18,746 bases of DNA from a virus (Duplodnaviria > Heunggongvirae > Uroviricota > Caudoviricetes): the IMG/VR virus record IMGVR_UViG_2778261514_000005; one strand, written 5' to 3'. The translations under genes and the position numbers were made by a program. The stretch's first letter is position 1. The number at the start of each line of letters is the position of its first letter. Below the pieces are notes generated by a model. That model saw nothing but the letters and a program-made list of their open reading frames with translations. It ran no database searches and was not told the DNA's origin. Shown piece by piece: positions 2,986 to 14,312 of the stretch.

Positions 2986-3004
2986 CGTCCGGGTTAATAA
3001 ACCG

Positions 3005-6000
3005 TCAGCTGATACTGATTCCCGCCGTGGATTTTTTCATCACCACAACCAGTAAATCACTGATGTACGTCGTCGGTGTCCAGTTGTTCGCGCCGGCAGA
3101 CGACACATTAAACGTCAGGGTGACATGACCCCGTCCTGCTGGCATGTCAATCACCGATGAGAACACCCGGCTGACATCCGTTGCCGGTTCATGAAAAATC
3201 TCTGCCCCGTTTTTCAGCACCTGCAGCTTACAGGTTGAATACCAGTACGACTGCTGATTCGGGCTGTTGACGTTCTGGTGTTTCGTCCCGCGAAACAGTA
3301 CCGGTGGAATGATAATCTGCCGGTCGAAGCCCTGGTCATCGTAAACCGTGACGGTTATCGTGCCACGGGCATAACTGTTATTCCGGGGAAAGGCTTTCCC
3401 CACCGTCTTCACCAGATCGCCTTCAATCTGGTTCGCAGACAGTTTCCCTCTGATGACACAGTTCTCGTTAATGGTGACATTATTGAGCGTGCCCGAGTTC
3501 GCACTGATATGTCCGCTGATGTCCGCATTGCGGGCTGTCAGCCTGCCCTCCGGCGTCAGGGAAAACGTCGGGGGATTGCCGGATGACGTGATACTCACCG
3601 CAAACAGTCGCTTCAGGAACACGTCGTTCATAAACAGCTGATTCCCCTGCGCCACAAACAGCGGCGTGGTGTTGCCGTTCTCCGGGGTAATCATCGCGAT
3701 ACGGTCCGCCTGCAGCAGAATATTGCTCAGCGTCTGGCCATCAGCATCCTCAATCCCCGCACCAATACCGGCAACATACGGAATGCCGTTTTTCGTTTTC
3801 TGCACCTTCAGCATGTACAGCGCTGCCAGCTCATCATTCGTGTCTGACTGGACCTGCTGTATCTGCTGTATGGTGGCGCTCTGGTCTTCCAGCTTTTTAT
3901 CCGTGGTCGAGGTGATTTCACTCCCTTTGTCATCCACGTACTGGCGGACCTGCGCTATCTGCCTGGCGTTTTCCTCCGTGCTCTGGCTGACTGTCTGTGT
4001 GATTTCACTGCTCACCCGGTCCACCTGCTGACTCACCTGCGCGATGGCCAGCGTCTGGTCCTCATTCTTTTTCGCAACCAGCTGCGTGAGGCTGTTTTCC
4101 GCCTCCCCGATTTTTCGGGTCACTTCCGCAACATCCGTCTCCAGTCGCTGGCGGATGTCTTCTTCCAGTTGCGTGACCTCAGTACGCAGGGCTGACGCAT
4201 CAATACGCTCTTTCAGTGCCTTCCCCAGCAGCGCCTCATCTATCAGCCCACGGAAAATTTCCAGATACCCTTCACCATCATTGCTGGCCTGCCCGCTGGC
4301 CTCCACAAACGCAGATTTCCCCACCAGGTTGACGCTGCGCACATAAAACCAGAAATCCTTCCCCGGCTTAATGTGCGGGCCGGAGACGCTCCACTGGCTG
4401 CCGGTACCCAGATAACGGGCAGAGGTTTCCACCTGTGCCGTGTCCGTGATGCGTTTTTCTGAGAACCAGAATTCATACTGTACCGTCGGGTCATACACCG
4501 CAGGATGCGGGACCACCGTTATCTGAAAATAGCCCGGCGTCAGTTCAATGCTGGCCGGTGCCGCCGGTGCATTAATCCGGAATGTGGTGGTGGCAGGTTC
4601 GCCCTGCTGGCCGTAGCTGTTTATCGCCCTGACCGTCAGGGTGTATTCCCCGAGCGGCAGGCCACTGAAACGGTACTCCGTGTCCGCCGTGATGGCGCTG
4701 GTCACCAGGCGGCTGTTCTCACCACTGCCACTGGTCAGGCGCAGACTGAAGCGCACGCCCTTCACCACCCGCGGCGTGTCCCATTTCGCCAGCGCCAGAT
4801 ACTGGCCGTCTGAGGCACTCACCTCCACCGTGAGGTGCTGCACTGCCGGCGGGATGACGCTGTTCAGTGAGCCGGACATCGGCTCAAAGCGGGCCCCGTT
4901 ATCCACAATGGCTTCTTTTTCCGGCACATGCTGCACCGCCGTGATGGCAAAGGTGCCGTCCGTGTTTTCCCGGATGGAAACACAGCGGAACAGGCGACGA
5001 CGCAGTGACGGCAGGGAGAGTCCCCATACCCCGTATGCCTCCACGCCATCCGGCAGGACGCTGACCTGTATCCGGTCAGGGGCCGGTTGTGCAGTGATGT
5101 CCACGCGCACCGGCTTACCGCTGCCGTTAATCAGGTTCACCGTCGATGTCCCTGTCTCAGGCAGTGTCACCTCACGGTCCAGCGTCAGGGTACGGCTGGC
5201 GGCATCGATGGACAGGATACGTCCGCCGGTCAGGGTCCCGGCATAGTCGTTATCACAGATTTCAATGATGTCACCGGGTGTGTGCCGCAGCCCCTGTGAC
5301 CCGAGCGTGAAATCCACCGTCTGCGTTTCCAGCAGTTCGGTCTTTATCACCCACAGTCCGGCACGGTGGGCCTGACCGCGGCTGGTACAGCCGAACGCAT
5401 CCATCTTCAGCAGGTTGCGCCCGTAGCGCAGGATGGCGTCCGGGTCTTCCACCAGTTCCGTGGAAGTCTGCCAGCCGTTCTGCGGGTCAGTGTAATTCAC
5501 CTCCACCGCCGTGTGCCGGTCCTTCAGGGCACTGAAGCTGTAGCGGAACCCCACGCCGTTATCATCCACCACCACATCGCTGTTGGTGTACGGCCACACC
5601 ACATCCGACGGGCGGTCCTGAACGAACGTCAGCGTCTGGCCGTTCCATACCGGCATACAGCGCATCGCCGAGCAGAAATCCCCCAGGACATCCCACACCT
5701 TACGCTGCTGTGACAGGTACGCATTAAAGGTCATCCGCGGCTCTGTGCCCCCGAAACCATCCGGGACCGTCTGGTCGCAGTACTGCCCGATGGCATACAG
5801 CGCCCACTTGTCCACATCCGCGGCCCCCAGGCGTTTTCCCATCCCGTAGCGCGGGTGGGTCAGCATGTCCCACAGGCACCAGGCCGGGTTATTGCTGTAT
5901 GCCGGTTTCAGACTCCCGTCCCAGATACCACTGTAGGTGCGTTTTTCCGGGTCATAGTTTGACGGCACCTGAATGATGCGGCCGCGGATATGGTAGTTCA

Positions 6001-6700: not shown

Positions 6701-6746
6701 TCTGTCCCCCTCTCCTGTCTGATGTCTGATGTCTGAATCTGTTTAT

Positions 6747-6779
6747 GCCCAAAAACAACAGGCACCCCGGAGGGTGCCT
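6747..6779 (-). terminator. Hairpin plus U-rich tract just upstream of the J RBS
   Basis: Minus strand reads AGGCACCC-tccg-GGGTGCCT (UCCG tetraloop) followed by GTTGTTTTTGGG. The U-tract is imperfect, so this may be an attenuator or mRNA-stability hairpin rather than a terminator. Confidence 0.35.
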
Positions 6780-6794
6780 GTGTCATGACGGAAT

Positions 6795-6953
6795 AAAATT
6801 TCTGAAATTCTTCACATTTCCGGCAATTGCCTGTAGCCGCAATAATGACGCTGCGTTACATTTTTGATGCCTGAAAAATAACTCCATAACGTTAATCTTC
6901 ATCGTTCTCTCCCGCAGCTCCGCTGATTCTGCGGGATTTTTTTATCCCTTAAA
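6795..6953. repeat. Unit 1 of a tandemly duplicated non-coding element in the I-J intergenic insert
   Basis: Shares a near-identical ~55-nt block (tcacatttc..cctgtagcc.caataatgacgctgcgttacatttt) and a conserved 3' block (catcgttctc.tcccgcag ... ctgcgggattttttta) with unit 2 about 228 bp downstream. The middle section diverges between the units. Confidence 0.6.
6910..6945 (+). terminator. Intrinsic terminator (plus strand) at the 3' end of unit 1
   Basis: tcccgcag-(11 nt loop)-ctgcggga followed by ttttttta on the plus strand. The minus strand has no U-tract after the stem, so it is unidirectional. Confidence 0.5.
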
Positions 6954-7021
6954 CCCGGCACGATGTTATCTGTCTTCTTCCACAGATACCCGCCTGGCTT
7001 CCGCTCCCCCGCTACCGGATA

Positions 7022-7178
7022 AAAAGTCTGAATTTATTCACATTTCTGCAAATTACCTGTAGCCACAATAATGACGCTGCGTTACATTTTTTGCGGGTAA
7101 ATAAAAATAAAACGCCAACAGGTTAGTCAACATCGTTCTCTTCCCGCAGGCGCCGAGCACTGCGGGATTTTTTTATTT
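7022..7178. repeat. Unit 2 of the tandemly duplicated non-coding element in the I-J intergenic insert
   Basis: Second copy of the conserved 5' block and terminator block (see unit 1). It ends directly at the I stop codon. Confidence 0.6.
7141..7178 (+). terminator. Intrinsic terminator (plus strand) at the 3' end of unit 2
   Basis: Same tcccgcag/ctgcggga stem as unit 1 but a different loop (gcgccgagca), followed by tttttttatttt. The stem is conserved while the loop differs. Confidence 0.5.
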
Positions 7179-8510: not shown

Positions 8511-9209
8511 TTACTGCGAAAGTTTATTAATGGAAAGGAAACCGCCAAAATTAACCGCCATGCCGCGCATCTCACACCCGCGCATGTATTTACTGCATCT
8601 GTCCTTCCGGATATCCGTGGTGGGGTTGTCGAACTCATCCGCCACTGCCGGACCGTTATACCCGCATTCATCGCCCCGGTAATCCCACATACAGGTGTTC
8701 GCCAGCATGATGCGACCGGGAAACAGCGCCCCGTCCGTCTCCGTCGGTGTCGCCAGCACAAACGAGGCCGTCATGGCTGTCAGCGATGACATCTGCTCCA
8801 CCACCCACCGGTCCGTCAGCTCCTGCTCCGGGTCGGCCTCCGGATTCCCCGCCACAAAATTCACCGCATCCAGAAAACGGGCATACACCCGGCGGCGGAC
8901 CACCGTGGCACCCACCAGGCTCTGCAAATCCTCCGCCATCCCGGTGACAAGGCCGAACAGATTGGACACCGTCAGCGACGGGCGGGCACTGCTGCCCTTT
9001 CCGTTCATCTCAAAGCCGCTGCCCTCAATCGGGTACGCCTCATACTTCCGCCCCTGCCAGGTCACCGGCTCCCCTTTTTCATTCAGCTCATTGCAGAAAA
9101 AATACCGCTCACCGCCCTGCACCGTCAGGTCGATTTCCCAGAGCACCACCCGCGGTGACTGCTCTGATTTAACCGACTCGTTCAGGCTTGCTTCGTGAAT
9201 ATCCTGCAT
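8511..9209 (-). CDS. L: Minor tail protein L
   Basis: Track ORF 8511..9251, trimmed to the ATG at 9209 (MQDIHEASLNE...). VVLWEIDLT..GGERYFFCNE.NEKGEPVTWQGR.Y..YPI.GSGFE.NGKG ... NFGGFLSINKLSQ is near-identical to lambda gpL as I recall it. Confidence 0.9.
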   Translation of the reverse strand: MQDIHEASLNESVKSEQSPRVVLWEIDLTVQGGERYFFCNELNEKGEPVTWQGRKYEAYPIEGSGFEMNGKGSSARPSLTVSNLFGLVTGMAEDLQSLVGATVVRRRVYARFLDAVNFVAGNPEADPEQELTDRWVVEQMSSLTAMTASFVLATPTETDGALFPGRIMLANTCMWDYRGDECGYNGPAVADEFDNPTTDIRKDRCSKYMRGCEMRGMAVNFGGFLSINKLSQ

Positions 9210-9341
9210 ATATCCGCCCATAAAAAAGGGGCGCAACCGCGCCCCGAACAATAAAAGTCCAATTTAAAATAAAACCAATAAAGGTAATAACAGAAAGTTA
9301 AATCAGCATATGCCAGATGGCAATTGCTGATTGCAGTGACC

Positions 9342-9362
9342 AATGAAAACACTGTTTTCATT
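9342..9362. other. 21-bp perfect palindrome aatgaaaaca-c-tgttttcatt downstream of the porin gene
   Basis: Read directly from the sequence as a 10+1+10 perfect inverted repeat, about 60 nt past the porin stop in an AT-rich spacer. It could be a dimeric-protein binding site or a weak terminator stem. Confidence 0.4.
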
Positions 9363-9418
9363 GATACAGACCGCCTGTAAGGGCAGACGGCCTGTAACCA
9401 TTAACTTACCAGCAACAA

Positions 9419-10513
9419 TCAGAACTGATAAGTCATACCCACAGCAACAATATCATCTGTAGTAATACCGGCTTTCTGAGTAAATTTGTTTTCGTCAATC
9501 AGGTTAATTTTATAATCAACATAGGTAGACATATTTTTGTTGAAGTAATATGTTGCTCCAACATCAATATATTTAACCAGGTCCTGATCCCCATAGTTTT
9601 TCCCACCAACTATAACCTCCTGCCCACGAGACTGCAGGAATGCCAGTGATGGACGTAAACCAAAATCAAACTGATATTGCGCTACAGCTTCAACGTTTTC
9701 TGCCTTATCCGCAATGCCGTTAACCTTATCGCCAAAAGCCGTCATATTTTGGGTCTCTGAATATATTGTCGCAATATACAGATTATTGGCATCATATTTC
9801 AGACCAGCCCCCCACATTTCAGCATATTTACCACTGGCAACAGAGCTTCCTCCATTAACCTGCTTATCAGTACGGTCAGATTTCGTGTACGCCGCTACGA
9901 GACCAAAACCATCAAACTCATAGCTGGCTGAGAAACCATACCCATCACCATTGGCCTTCTGGAGGTCATCGCGCTCATTTTTGCCCTGATACTGCGCCGC
10001 AAAATTCAGACCATCAACCAGCCCAAAGAAATCTGTATTACGGTAGGTCAGAACTCCGGAAGTTCGGGCAGTCATAAAGTTATCGGTCTGAGTCCAGCCA
10101 TCACCACCAAACTCTGGCAGTACGTCAGTATATGATCCGACATCGTAAGCAATACCGTAGTTACGACCGTAATCAATGCTACCAACATCAGCAAATCTCA
10201 GACCTGCAAATGCCAGACGGGTTTTATTTCCCGCGGAACCTTCAGATTCCGTTTTGTTACCAGAGAACTGGTATTCCCACTGACCAAATCCGGTCAGTTG
10301 ATCATTAATCTGCGTTTCGCCTTTAAAGCCGAGACGAGCGTAAGTCTGATCTCCGTCATTACCTTTATCATCCGAGAAGTAATGCAGAGCGGTTGCACGC
10401 CCGTAAAGATCCAGTTTATTACCATCTTTATTATAAACTTCTGCTGCCTGCGCCCCCGCAGCAAACATCACTGCAACTGCTACAGCAGAAAGTGCCACTG
10501 TCATTTTTTTCAT
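9419..10513 (-). CDS. General porin of the OmpC/OmpF/PhoE (GBP) family, prophage-encoded cargo gene
   Basis: 364-aa track ORF with signal peptide [23 protein letters not shown]. Mature N-terminus [15 protein letters not shown], internal ...VLPEFGGD...[22 protein letters not shown]... and C-terminus ...[18 protein letters not shown]......AGI.TD.IVA.G..YQF with terminal Phe are classic enterobacterial porin signatures. Codon usage is visibly more AT-rich than the flanking tail genes. Confidence 0.9.
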
Positions 10514-10711
10514 GATTTAATCCTTATTTAAACTGAACTATTCATGCATTCAGATGTCATGAACAAAAATTAAAATATTTTAATACAAATTCTTAGTTCA
10601 ATTTATATTACGTAACAAAATGTAAATACAGGATCGATTTCGCACTTTCTGACAAGACAGATTAAAAATAATTAACAACTAAACAATAAAGAATGATTTA
10701 TAGGATAATTC
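10514..10711 (-). promoter_or_regulatory. AT-rich upstream region of the porin gene; probable own promoter with an OmpR-box-like motif
   Basis: ~200-bp AT-rich spacer between the M stop and the porin start. Minus strand contains TTTACATTTTGTTACGTAAT (plus coordinates 10607-10626), which resembles the ompC OmpR C1 box as I recall it, and possible -35/-10 pairs such as TTGTTA ... TAAGAAT. AAGGA RBS sits 8 nt before the ATG. Confidence 0.35.
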
Positions 10712-11053
10712 TCATCTAACTACCTGCTCTATCGTGCAACTGAAATCACTGTACCGGGCGTTATCCGTAATACTCCACTCCCGGCACACCACCCTGACCG
10801 TCCGGTTATGTTTCGGGGGCTTCCACAAAAAAGCCCGGTAACCACCATGCCATGACAGAAACGCGGACAGTGCCTCCCGCTCAGCATCCGTTGTCACCCG
10901 AAAAACCACCTGAAAGGTCTTCAGTTGCGCATTCAGTCCTGCCGGACGACGCTGCTGATAACCGTCGCCAAACTTCACCGTCATCACCGACGGTTTCTCC
11001 GTCACCTGCATCCCTTCCCGGGGACACCAGTGAAGGGTCTTAATCTCATCCAC
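10712..11053 (-). CDS. M: Minor tail protein M
   Basis: 113-aa track ORF. ...VKFGDGYQQRRPAGLNAQLKTFQVVF...FLSWHGGYRAFLW.PP... matches lambda gpM as I recall it. Start overlaps the H stop by 8 nt. Confidence 0.85.
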   Translation of the reverse strand: MDEIKTLHWCPREGMQVTEKPSVMTVKFGDGYQQRRPAGLNAQLKTFQVVFRVTTDAEREALSAFLSWHGGYRAFLWKPPKHNRTVRVVCREWSITDNARYSDFSCTIEQVVR

Positions 11054-14000
11054 TCAGCATTCCCCCGTCACGTCGCATGGACAGCATCACCGCCTGTACC
11101 CGCTGGTCAATCAGTTGCACAAGGGTGCCCGCCGCTTCCGGCCCTATCTGCCCGTTAGCGCCGTCATTCTGAATGGCGATGTGGTACACCGGAGAATACA
11201 CCAGACCCGCACTGCCGTTCATGCTGCCCACCGCACGCACGCCGAGTGAACCATCCGCTGCCCGGGTCAGGGGCATTATGGCTTCAGGTCCGGCCTCCCC
11301 CATCAGCCCTGCCCCTTTTGCAAAGGCAAAGTACGTGGGCGTGTCCACAATACTGTTACTGTATGCACTCAGGTTTGCCGAGGTATAAACGCCGCCTTTT
11401 GCATTTGCCACCGCGCCACCCAGCCAGTTGCCTATACTGCCGAAAAATCCTCCTGCACCGGACATACTGTTTGCCGCCATCTTAATGCCGTTGACAATGG
11501 CCGCATTCATAAGAACTTTTGATATTTCCTGCAGGATTGATGCAGCCCAGCTGCGCCATTCCACTTTATTTCCGTTCAGCATATCCGTGATGTTACTTAC
11601 CATCCCTGAGATACCGTCTGTCGCAAGCTGTGCTGCCTGTGAAGCGTAATCTGATGCGCTGTCCACCCAGTTGCTGACCCCCTCCTGCAGTCCTTTCTGC
11701 CAGTCAGCACGCTGCGCATCCGATTCGGCATAAAAAGCCTCCTGGTCTTTAAGGCGTTCACTCAGATACTGCGCATTCTGCGCCAGCGCCTGTCTGTAAA
11801 AATCCTCACTGATATCCCCTGTCTGATACTGAGACTGCAGGTCCGCATCCTTCTGGCGGTAGCCGTCACGAATCTGCTGCAGCTCCCGCATCCGTTCACG
11901 GCCCCGCTCACCCTGCCCGTACCCCAGCAGCTCTGCGTCATTTGATGCCCTTGCGTCTGCATTATCATTTTTCAGGGTCTCCTCCCGGGCCCGTAACTGC
12001 TCCCGGATTTTCTTCTGGTCAATCAGGGCAGCATTGCGCAGCAGCTCCTGCTTCTGAATCTCCGTCAGGGTTTTCAGCTCGCCCTGCGAGGTCTGGTATT
12101 TCAGTTTTGCCAGTTCTGTATTCTTCCCTGCCAGTCCCAGTTGTTCCTTCTGCTGCTTCAGCAGACGGGAAAAACTGTCTTCCGCTTTTTCCGTCTCAGA
12201 TTTTCCGCCCCGGGATTTGGGTTTATTCGCCTCATTATTGCGCCAGGCTTCCATCGAATTACGGATGTAACGCTGCCTCGCCTCCTGATACGTATCCCCC
12301 ACCAGACCAAGGTCATCCGCCGCATACCCCAGCCGGGCACGCTCTTTTTCTTCCCCTTTCCGCCGGGACAGGGCAAGTTGACGCTCTGTGTTATTCAGGG
12401 CGCTCTGCTGTTTATCATCCAGAGTGGCCTGTGGCAGTCGCAGCGGTACACTCGCCAGTCCCTGACGCTGTTGCAGCAGTTCATTACCCAGCCCCAGCAG
12501 GCGGTTGAATTCCGTATGCTGAACATTCATCTGCAGTAATGCCTGGTATGCCCTGTTCTGCTCTGCCGCCTCCTCACGTATCCTCGCTACACGGTTGTAC
12601 TCCAGTGACGCCAGCGTTTCCTGTACAGACCTCGCCCTTTCCTGCATCTGTGTCAGTCGTGACTGTTCAACCGCCAGCCTGCCGGTTGCCTCAGCAAGGC
12701 CGTGGGTTATAATCTCCGCACCTGAACCACCCTGTGGATTTTCCTGCAGCCAGCGCTGATAGTCAGCAATCTGTGTTTTCAGTCCCCGGACTTTACTTTC
12801 CTGCTCAGCAATCAGACGATTCTGCTCTTCCAGTGCTTCGCGGGTTTTACCCTCATTATCAGCCAGTTCCGGAAGGGTCATTCCTGGCAGCTTTGCCCGG
12901 ATTTCATCAATCGTCGATGCATACTGGCGCGCGGACTCCCTGGCCTGTTCCTGACGCTGGTACACCGTGTACCAGGCACCGGCCCCAAGCATCAGTAAAC
13001 CGGGTATCCCGCCGACCAGAGAAAGCAGGGATGCAGCGCCACTTTTCAGCATTCCCGTAACCGACGTGGCATTCTCCAGCGCCTTCCCCGAGGCCGCCAC
13101 TGCATGATTCGACTGCACCAGTGCAGCATTGGCCACAATCATGGCCCGACGTTTTGCGACGGCATTCTGTGTGACCAGCGCCTCCGCACTGGTATTTCTG
13201 GCCACGGCGAGTTCTGCCTGTGCCAGTTGCCAGGCACGTTCTGCCGCCAGAGCGTCAGCCGCCGCCTTACGTTGCACCTGAACCGCAGCATCTGCCTGCG
13301 CCGCTGCCAGGGCAACAGTGCCAGACTTCGCAGCAAGCAGTTCTGTCGTGGCCTTTCCCACACCGGATGCCATATTGCCAAAGTACCGGGCGACCCCGAC
13401 AGCAACCAGCACACCCGCAGCTGTTGCCACGGTATCAATATTTCCGGCCACACCGTTCAGCACGCCGGAGAGCGTTTTCGTCGCTCCGCTGGCCTCATTC
13501 GCGCCACCCACCCAGGCCATAAAGGCGTTTTCCACCTTCGTGATCCCGTCAGCCACCGTTTCCGGCATGGCTGCATATTCATCACGCAATATCCCCAGCT
13601 GGCTGATTAACGCGGGAACGACTTTATCCGCCGTCAGTTGACCATCGTCCGCCATCGCCTTCAGATCTTTACGGGCCACGCCCATGCCTGCAGCCAGTGC
13701 GCGAATGATCCGGTCCCCACTTTCATTGACCGAATTAAATTCCTCACCGCGTAACACACCCTGTGCCAGCGCCTGGCTGAACTGGGTGATCACCGAACCC
13801 GCCTCTGCCGTACTGGCACCGGAAATTTTCAGCCCTGTCGAAATGGCCTCCGTCACCTTCAGCACATCATCAGCACTGTAACCATATTCACGCATCGAGG
13901 CAGCCGAACGGGCAAACAGGGCCGCATTATCCGAAAATGCGGTGCCTGTCCGCTGGCTGATATCCATCAGTACTTTCTGTGATGACGAAAATTCATCTGA

Positions 14001-14312
14001 TGACTGCGACGCCTGTTTCAGACGGGCATTCACGGAGCTCCATTCATCCGCCAGCGAAATCAGGTGTCCGGTGGCAAAGGCACCGGCAAACGCACCGGTC
14101 ATTCCGACAGCCGAAGCGCGGATTTCCGTCAACTGGCTGTTCAGCTCAGCCAGAGCCCGGCGCTGCTCCCTGGCTGCCGCAGCAGCCTGACGTCCGCCAT
14201 TCTGCAGGGTCCGGTAATATTCACTGCCCATACGGGATGCCCGCTGGATCTCCGACTGGAATGACTGTGAATTTGCCGAAATTTTGATAATCAGTTCACG
14301 TAACGTCGCCAT
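11046..14312 (-). CDS. H: Tail tape measure protein (lambda H-like)
   Basis: 1088-aa track ORF, Ala/Gln-rich with coiled-coil character and a Gly-rich hydrophobic segment, in the canonical position after G/T. Strong GAGAAAGGTGA RBS before the ATG at 14312. Confidence 0.9.
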   Translation of the reverse strand: MATLRELIIKISANSQSFQSEIQRASRMGSEYYRTLQNGGRQAAAAAREQRRALAELNSQLTEIRASAVGMTGAFAGAFATGHLISLADEWSSVNARLKQASQSSDEFSSSQKVLMDISQRTGTAFSDNAALFARSAASMREYGYSADDVLKVTEAISTGLKISGASTAEAGSVITQFSQALAQGVLRGEEFNSVNESGDRIIRALAAGMGVARKDLKAMADDGQLTADKVVPALISQLGILRDEYAAMPETVADGITKVENAFMAWVGGANEASGATKTLSGVLNGVAGNIDTVATAAGVLVAVGVARYFGNMASGVGKATTELLAAKSGTVALAAAQADAAVQVQRKAAADALAAERAWQLAQAELAVARNTSAEALVTQNAVAKRRAMIVANAALVQSNHAVAASGKALENATSVTGMLKSGAASLLSLVGGIPGLLMLGAGAWYTVYQRQEQARESARQYASTIDEIRAKLPGMTLPELADNEGKTREALEEQNRLIAEQESKVRGLKTQIADYQRWLQENPQGGSGAEIITHGLAEATGRLAVEQSRLTQMQERARSVQETLASLEYNRVARIREEAAEQNRAYQALLQMNVQHTEFNRLLGLGNELLQQRQGLASVPLRLPQATLDDKQQSALNNTERQLALSRRKGEEKERARLGYAADDLGLVGDTYQEARQRYIRNSMEAWRNNEANKPKSRGGKSETEKAEDSFSRLLKQQKEQLGLAGKNTELAKLKYQTSQGELKTLTEIQKQELLRNAALIDQKKIREQLRAREETLKNDNADARASNDAELLGYGQGERGRERMRELQQIRDGYRQKDADLQSQYQTGDISEDFYRQALAQNAQYLSERLKDQEAFYAESDAQRADWQKGLQEGVSNWVDSASDYASQAAQLATDGISGMVSNITDMLNGNKVEWRSWAASILQEISKVLMNAAIVNGIKMAANSMSGAGGFFGSIGNWLGGAVANAKGGVYTSANLSAYSNSIVDTPTYFAFAKGAGLMGEAGPEAIMPLTRAADGSLGVRAVGSMNGSAGLVYSPVYHIAIQNDGANGQIGPEAAGTLVQLIDQRVQAVMLSMRRDGGMLSG

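Follow-up and report, generated by a model that had tools for sequence, protein, structure and literature searches.

We analysed an 18,746-nt stretch of tailed-virus DNA (IMG/VR record IMGVR_UViG_2778261514_000005; hereafter the window) and found that a 1,502-nt AT-rich cassette lies between the stop codon of tail gene M and the ATG of tail gene L. The cassette carries an intact porin gene, followed by a structured 3′ RNA element that resembles IpeX, a 167-nt RNA of DLP12. Taken together, the data make it probable that the cassette is a moron-type module of lysogenic conversion that swaps porins by combining a phage porin with an IpeX-like 3′ RNA, and lysogenic conversion of the envelope is its most likely role. 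A sequence-only reading of the window had drawn attention to the insert and its porin. The IpeX-like RNA and an OmpR-box-like site upstream of the gene both lay outside that reading, and together they suggest a mechanism.

The edges of the cassette were examined with a boundary test, in which M and L were fused artificially and used as a query against 5,426 complete Escherichia coli genomes. The fused query matched without a gap over 1,040 nt in at least 1,198 of these genomes. At a cassette-free site in another prophage, whose flanks are 98% identical, M and L overlap as TGATG, and the insert is therefore exactly 9210..10711, so that the boundaries given by the sequence-only reading for its insert of about 1.5 kb were right to the base. 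The last 12 nt of the insert appear to replace the TGATG translational coupling of M and L with a ribosome-binding stretch. The GC content is 0.23 upstream of the porin open reading frame (ORF), 0.44 within it and 0.41 downstream, compared with 0.57 in the rest of the window. These values bear out an AT-rich upstream region and a low-GC cassette, with one reservation: a GC content of 0.44 is typical of porin genes (lc, 0.44; phoE, 0.45), and the composition of the ORF alone is therefore not evidence for a foreign origin. The cassette thus shows the marks of a moron, an insertion between otherwise adjacent genes with deviating base composition; it also has its own terminator, together with a putative promoter.

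The encoded protein matches the Pfam family Porin_1 over its full length (profile positions 1–337 of 337, E = 4e-143, 477 bits against a cut-off of 23.7). It carries the signal peptide and the mature N-terminus named in the sequence-only reading and ends in ...TYQF, with phenylalanine as the last residue. The closest solved structures are those of OmpC, PhoE and OmpK36 (E of 1e-130 or better). R42, R82, R132, D113, E117 and the PEFGG motif of the constriction loop L3 are conserved, and K16 is replaced by R. An AlphaFold2 model of moderate confidence (predicted local distance difference test score, 70.8) forms a 16-strand barrel with an N-terminal closing strand. The intact gene recognized in the sequence-only reading was thus confirmed, with no pseudogene decay. 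The product is probably a functional 16-stranded general-diffusion porin, which would be expected to act as a trimeric pore in the outer membrane.

The same reading had taken the protein for a diverged OmpC, a view that phylogeny overturned. In a neighbour-joining tree (built without support values), the porins encoded between M and L form their own clade, which is sister to, and not nested within, a clade of Salmonella and Citrobacter OmpD, NmpC-type phage porins and Lc; OmpC/OmpN, PhoE and OmpF lie apart. Consistent with this placement, the cassette porin is 72–75% identical to OmpD, NmpC and Lc and 62–64% identical to OmpC, OmpF and PhoE (64% for OmpC). RefSeq names the protein ‘porin OmpC’. 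We rejected orthology with OmpC given the 64% identity, the branching with OmpD/NmpC/Lc and the location in a prophage tail operon, and regard the label as correct at the family level only. We also considered Ec042-2121 of enteroaggregative E. coli 042, described as a ‘phylogenetically distinct porin’ (PMC2808357), which proved to be a different sequence that does not belong to the M–L clade.

Comparison of alleles gave synonymous divergence (dS) of 0.3–2.4 and ratios of nonsynonymous to synonymous divergence (dN/dS) of 0.03–0.17, which indicates long-standing purifying selection on the porin gene. The variation that does occur is concentrated in the surface loops, above all in L5, where an indel of 0–30 residues is found, followed by L6, L8, L4 and L1, whereas the barrel, the periplasmic turns and L3 are conserved. 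The allele in the window has the short form of L5.

Downstream of the porin, the sequence-only reading had noted a palindrome. The palindrome is real, and there is more than one: the region folds into three hairpins and an unpaired stretch of about 57 nt before a GC-rich intrinsic terminator, with a minimum free energy z-score of −7.9. The 190 nt between the porin stop codon and L have a mean column identity of 80% among alleles, compared with 51–66% at third codon positions in the porin. Over nine diverged alleles, 97.9% of cells at 38 base pairs are paired and 11 pairs show compensatory changes; none of 500 shuffles reached this level of covariation, and slid controls paired at 35–47%. A small ORF starting from ATGAAAACAGTG in the same region was dismissed as a peptide gene, as it is interrupted by a stop codon at one locus (L002) and lacks an ATG at another (L003).

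We built a covariance model (R1) from the cassette 3′ element; its E-values are rough. R1 gave full-length matches just 3′ of lc in PA-2 (E = 2e-6), of nmpC in DLP12 (E = 2e-6) and of the PhiR49_1 porin gene (E = 3e-7), with no further significant match in 116 kb. The region just 3′ of nmpC is what we take to be the position of IpeX. In IMG/VR, each of the 80 phage-porin loci also has an R1 match, which lies about 20 nt past the stop codon. These matches suggest that the 3′ untranslated region (UTR) of the cassette is probably a diverged homologue of IpeX. All 50 of the NmpC/Lc-type loci in IMG/VR (L064-L113, ~3600-3746) carry an IpeX-like element, and in this sample the RNA always accompanies a phage porin. 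On K-12 micF (L008, 2029-2175) the model gave a weak and non-significant match (E = 0.07), a likeness that could stem from remote shared ancestry or from convergence on the start regions of porin genes.

Searches by other means returned little. Scanning the window with Rfam models yielded no meaningful match at either the gathering or a permissive threshold, and the Rfam MicF model (RF00033), which finds K-12 micF, had no match in the window. The IpeX regions of DLP12 and PA-2 have no Rfam match either, from which it appears that Rfam is without an IpeX family. When the cassette flanks were compared with the lc, nmpC and ompC loci by blastn, no significant homology was detected outside the ORF; the only hints of an RNA were short matches to micF and, in antisense, to the start region of ompC. 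The prophage small RNA svsR (PMC12803456), located at the 3′ end of cI and directed at mal genes, was considered and found to be unrelated to the cassette element.

A conserved seed, GATTTAACTTTCTGTTATTACCTTTATTGGTTTT, lies within the unpaired stretch, and its core TTATTACCTT is invariant. The seed is unchanged across alleles whose synonymous sites are saturated, and when it was searched across all E. coli genomes with blastn set for distant matches, every match was a copy of the element, in each case unannotated. The 34-nt core seed of the window is predicted to pair with the ompC start region at −27.8 kcal/mol, covering positions −37 to −4, which include the MicC site and the Shine–Dalgarno sequence; the best of 13,254 control windows reached only −23.7. 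Pairing with ompF was weaker (−19.6, top 1.7%), the start region of the cassette porin itself was ordinary (−11.5), and so were phoE, ompN and lc. With three other seed variants, the ompC start region ranked in the top 0.1–0.2% of controls, ompF was in the top 0.2–0.3% for two of the three, and the variants’ own start regions were not outstanding (roughly top 7% to 74%). The known IpeX region behaved in the same way: its pairing with ompC (−26.7) was better than all 12,064 controls, ompF was in the top 1.2% and its own start region was ordinary. The positive controls, MicF with ompF and MicC with ompC, behaved as expected.

These comparisons bear on a simpler explanation, in which the cassette supplies one more channel, with a nutrient, bile or antibiotic phenotype, and the 3′ element serves only as stabilizer and terminator. 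The porin function that it requires is well supported, and hairpins and terminators are common at 3′ ends. We nevertheless consider it unlikely, because it does not account for an unpaired seed that remains invariant while synonymous sites saturate, or for complementarity to ompC that exceeds every control, and because the homologous IpeX region has been reported to lower OmpC and OmpF.

We next consider where the cassette occurs. It was found at 114 places, all chromosomal, in 105 of the 5,426 complete E. coli genomes, and its alleles across these genomes are deeply diverged. With about 6,600 M–L junctions in the set, the cassette occupies about 1.7% of them. The arrangement of M, porin and L, which had been put forward as unusual, is therefore a recurrent one, although it remains a minority state. 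Thirty IMG/VR contigs carry the cassette, and in the 28 that reach both flanks the porin lies between M and L. The same holds for one Citrobacter farmeri contig and for every locus with sufficient flanking DNA, including four further RefSeq loci and loci in other assemblies. By contrast, neither M nor L is near the porin at the 50 IMG/VR loci of the NmpC/Lc type, where identity to the cassette porin is only 73%, and the PhiR49_1 porin likewise has no adjacent M and L and sits at the Q–S locus, which upholds the earlier view that the cassette locus differs from the Q/lysis locus of Lc and nmpC. No porin of the M–L clade was found among 50,697 phage records (best match, 73%) or in any species-representative genome of GTDB (best match, 72%). 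In the part of the literature that our search covered, no paper describes a porin at the M–L junction, which is not proof of absence.

The M proteins that flank the cassettes range from 49% to 100% identity to the M of the window, and at several loci M is 100% identical while the porin is only 86% identical. Such a combination suggests that tail modules have exchanged porin alleles.

The window is 99.9% identical to a prophage in human isolates of Shiga-toxin-producing E. coli (STEC) such as S19-651. In this prophage IS600, an element of the IS3 family, sits in the portal gene, and the prophage is therefore defective. A defective prophage would fit the idea of an inert passenger, that is, a porin gene picked up from a chromosome and now silent or in decay. 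This idea is highly improbable given the dN/dS values of 0.03–0.17, ORFs that are intact at all loci examined, non-coding flanks that are conserved and variation that is concentrated in surface loops. The porin in the window is itself intact despite the defect. Decayed prophage remnants (L023 and L024; porin at 3001-4113) also still contain an intact 370-residue allele of the M–L clade; these remnants retain fragmentary M, L and tape-measure DNA and adjoin IS66 or genes for Rop and a type VI secretion system lipase; here the porin appears to outlive the phage.

The region upstream of the porin contains blocks conserved among alleles of the M–L locus and has no homology to the upstream DNA of ompC, lc or nmpC by blastn. 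We scanned the window with a matrix built from six OmpR sites of ompF and ompC, each first verified in the K-12 sequence. The best match on either strand of the whole window is the 20-mer TTTACATTTTGTTACGTAAT, whose score of 10.1 exceeds the leave-one-out scores of all six known sites. An OmpR-box-like site is present at the same position in six alleles. A candidate weak promoter begins exactly 60 nt (three OmpR-site lengths) past the start of the box, which is the geometry of ompC and ompF. The best candidate for a CRP-like site upstream of the porin had four mismatches, so that no such site was recognized. The putative sites suggest that the cassette porin may be under OmpR control.

This upstream block also bears on a possible function in the lytic phase. 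In that scenario, the cassette is expressed mainly under Q antitermination, and the receptor porin is shut off late so that progeny are not lost on debris. The cassette does have the same orientation as the tail genes and lacks a consensus promoter, and its terminator makes antitermination necessary for expression of L, K, I and J. We judge a primarily lytic function to be distinctly unlikely, however, because intact alleles are retained in defective or decayed prophages that are incapable of lytic growth and because a conserved upstream block with an OmpR-like site argues for independent transcription. Moreover, in uninduced LF82 the NmpC of prophage Perceval reaches an expression level about 10-fold above background (PMC9928086).

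Together, these observations are consistent with the following model for a porin swap in the lysogen. The cassette’s own weak promoter, activated by EnvZ/OmpR, would produce the phage porin. The porin transcript, or a 3′ fragment processed from it, would then pair with host ompC at the MicC site and Shine–Dalgarno sequence, and more weakly with ompF, and block their translation, whereas the start region of the cassette’s own mRNA would escape pairing. Host OmpC and OmpF would go down and the phage porin would go up. The swapped surface, with its variable loops and above all L5, could alter the docking of phages, colicins and antibodies as well as permeability, which may be of ecological benefit. 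When the phage grows lytically, polymerase modified by Q would pass the terminator before L. For the physiology, this model leans mainly on the experimentally studied precedent of IpeX and Lc.

A more specific proposal falls a little short of probable. It holds that the cassette represents a second, undescribed porin-swap lineage in lambdoid tail operons of E. coli and Citrobacter, in which an OmpR-controlled porin with a hypervariable L5 would be coupled to a 3′-UTR antisense RNA of the IpeX family that silences ompC and ompF by pairing directly at the MicC site and Shine–Dalgarno sequence; porin alleles would pass between tail modules that are otherwise nearly identical, under diversifying selection from phages or immunity. 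If true, it would also give IpeX itself a base-pairing mechanism.

Several points weigh against the porin-swap model. A longer, 52-nt version of the seed paired with the cassette’s own start region at −25.6, a value matched in 2 of 300 shuffles, although this signal vanished with the 34-nt conserved core. The duplex energies come from RNAduplex, which ignores intramolecular structure and Hfq, and in published accounts the action of IpeX is not solely based on complementarity. For the upstream region, 75 of 5,000 shuffles (1.5%) attained the OmpR-matrix score, and only six sites stand behind the matrix. A scan of the porin strand for consensus sigma-70 promoters found none, as would be expected of an activator-dependent promoter. 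As the prophage is defective, any role in lytic growth is moot in this window. Finally, the C terminus of the tail protein J shares 97% identity with its counterpart in long-tailed Stx phages and 54% with that in the OmpC-binding phage 434. These identities did not point to a receptor, so that self-exclusion is no more than a possible rationale for the swap.

Features of the cassette and its surroundings in the window
Feature	Position	Strand	Description
Ail/Lom-family gene	2313-2936	minus	beta-barrel protein, just after J
I–J gap	6701-7178		478 nt, non-coding, lower GC
Repeats in I–J gap	6788-6913; 7014-7144		two diverged copies
Tail gene L homologue	8511..9209	minus	232 aa; right flank; Pfam PF05100, E 1e-91
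Right insert end	9210..9221	minus	ATGGGCGGATAT; putative new ribosome-binding stretch for L; conserved among alleles
IpeX-like structured 3′ element	9221..9398	minus	178 nt; three hairpins, unpaired region, terminator
Intrinsic terminator	9222..9245	minus	GGGGCGCGGTTGCGCCCC then TTTTTT; stem invariant in 9 alleles
Unpaired conserved seed	9271..9304	minus	antisense-like to ompC 5′ UTR/Shine–Dalgarno sequence and ompF ribosome-binding site
Hairpin 3	9301..9332	minus	fold of 3′ element
Hairpin 2	9341..9364	minus	fold of 3′ element
Hairpin 1	9365..9397	minus	fold of 3′ element
Porin ORF	9419..10513	minus	364 aa; signal peptide 10445..10513; mature protein 9422..10444; stop 9419..9421
AT-rich upstream region	10514..10711	minus	198 nt, GC 0.23
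Candidate weak promoter	10538..10566	minus	TTGTTC, 17-nt spacer, GAATAG; in conserved block
OmpR-box-like 20-mer	10607..10626	minus	113 to 94 nt before ATG; putative
Tail gene M homologue	10712..11053	minus	113 aa; Pfam PF05939, E 3e-33; stop codon is left insert edge
Tape measure gene	11046..14312	minus	lambda-like tail operon
IS600	~18057-18746		in portal gene; enters window from about 18057, by collinearity with S19-651

Every long ORF of the window is on the minus strand, and these ORFs form a lambda-like tail operon (tape measure, M, porin, L, K, I and J). The prophage in S19-651 combines HK97-type head genes with a lambda-type tail and adjoins the trp operon and a truncated ompW. Just after J, the window encodes an Ail/Lom-family beta-barrel protein, a second outer-membrane moron. 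The gap between I and J contains a unit of about 226–231 nt in two diverged copies, which are 75–86% identical; the hairpin aaaaaaatcccgcag...ctgcggg opens each repeat in the sequence read, and Rfam gives no match. Outside the window, the S19-651 prophage carries genes for a YadA-like adhesin and an S6-family (SPATE) autotransporter protease after its tail-fibre genes (L001, 32042-38493). Other porin-bearing prophages (L018-L021, 742-1155) have an extra ORF of 137 residues between tail gene T and the tape measure gene, without a Pfam match, which may also be a moron.

Porins are the main route of entry for beta-lactams and the docking sites of many phages, colicins and antibodies. If the model is correct, a mobile porin swap would shift antibiotic permeability, susceptibility to phage therapy and surface antigenicity in a single step. 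The module turns up in about 2% of complete E. coli genomes, including those of many Shiga-toxin-producing strains, where it is labelled ‘OmpC’, a mislabelling that could confuse porin-based prediction of resistance. The analysis also offers a testable pairing model for IpeX and a covariance model for a family that is apparently absent from Rfam. We regard the link to IpeX, the pairing model for this RNA family and the allelic series of L5 as the most useful by-products.

Among known systems, MicC and MicF offer the closest parallel to the seed. The cassette seed overlaps the MicC target in the ompC 5′ UTR and resembles the 5′ ends of both RNAs, with 84% identity to micF over 25 nt at the MicF 5′ end, and its predicted duplex energies are similar to those of MicC with ompC and MicF with ompF. 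The architecture is different, however: MicC and MicF are encoded by divergently transcribed genes, whereas the cassette seed lies in a porin 3′ UTR that has no match to the Rfam MicF model. The nearest non-phage relatives of the porin are the OmpD proteins of Salmonella and Citrobacter chromosomes (70–75% identity), whose genes lie at a chromosomal yddG–ompD locus that has a 3′ spacer of only 88 nt and shows no match to the cassette flanks. With respect to location, the M/L junction is already known as a moron site through Gifsy-2, in which the same gpM/gpL junction holds the lom/ail-like STM1043 and sodCI. The cargo is directed at the envelope or periplasm in both cases, but the genes differ, sodCI is in the opposite orientation, and Gifsy-2 has neither a porin nor a regulatory RNA at this junction.

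The closest system overall is that of NmpC (DLP12) and Lc (PA-2), which are phage-borne general porins like that of the cassette, with 71–73% amino-acid identity to it. Work on PA-2 in the 1970s reportedly found that Lc replaces OmpC, the receptor of this phage. In both systems hairpins begin about 15–20 nt past the porin stop codon and are followed by an unpaired U-rich seed and then a GC-rich terminator, and each seed has a strong preference for the start region of ompC and a moderate one for ompF. The 3′ elements are nevertheless too diverged to be detected by blastn, and the proteins form separate clades. The cassette sits at the M–L junction and is oriented in the sense direction, whereas nmpC and lc are found between Q and the lysis genes and run antisense. 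Upstream of the porins, the DNA of the two systems is unrelated, with an OmpR-box-like site in the cassette and annotated CRP sites upstream of lc, and, unlike Lc of PA-2, the cassette is carried by no isolated phage record. The porin at the M/L junction is therefore best read as a variant of the known phage-porin theme, placed at another locus and apparently with a protein clade of its own.

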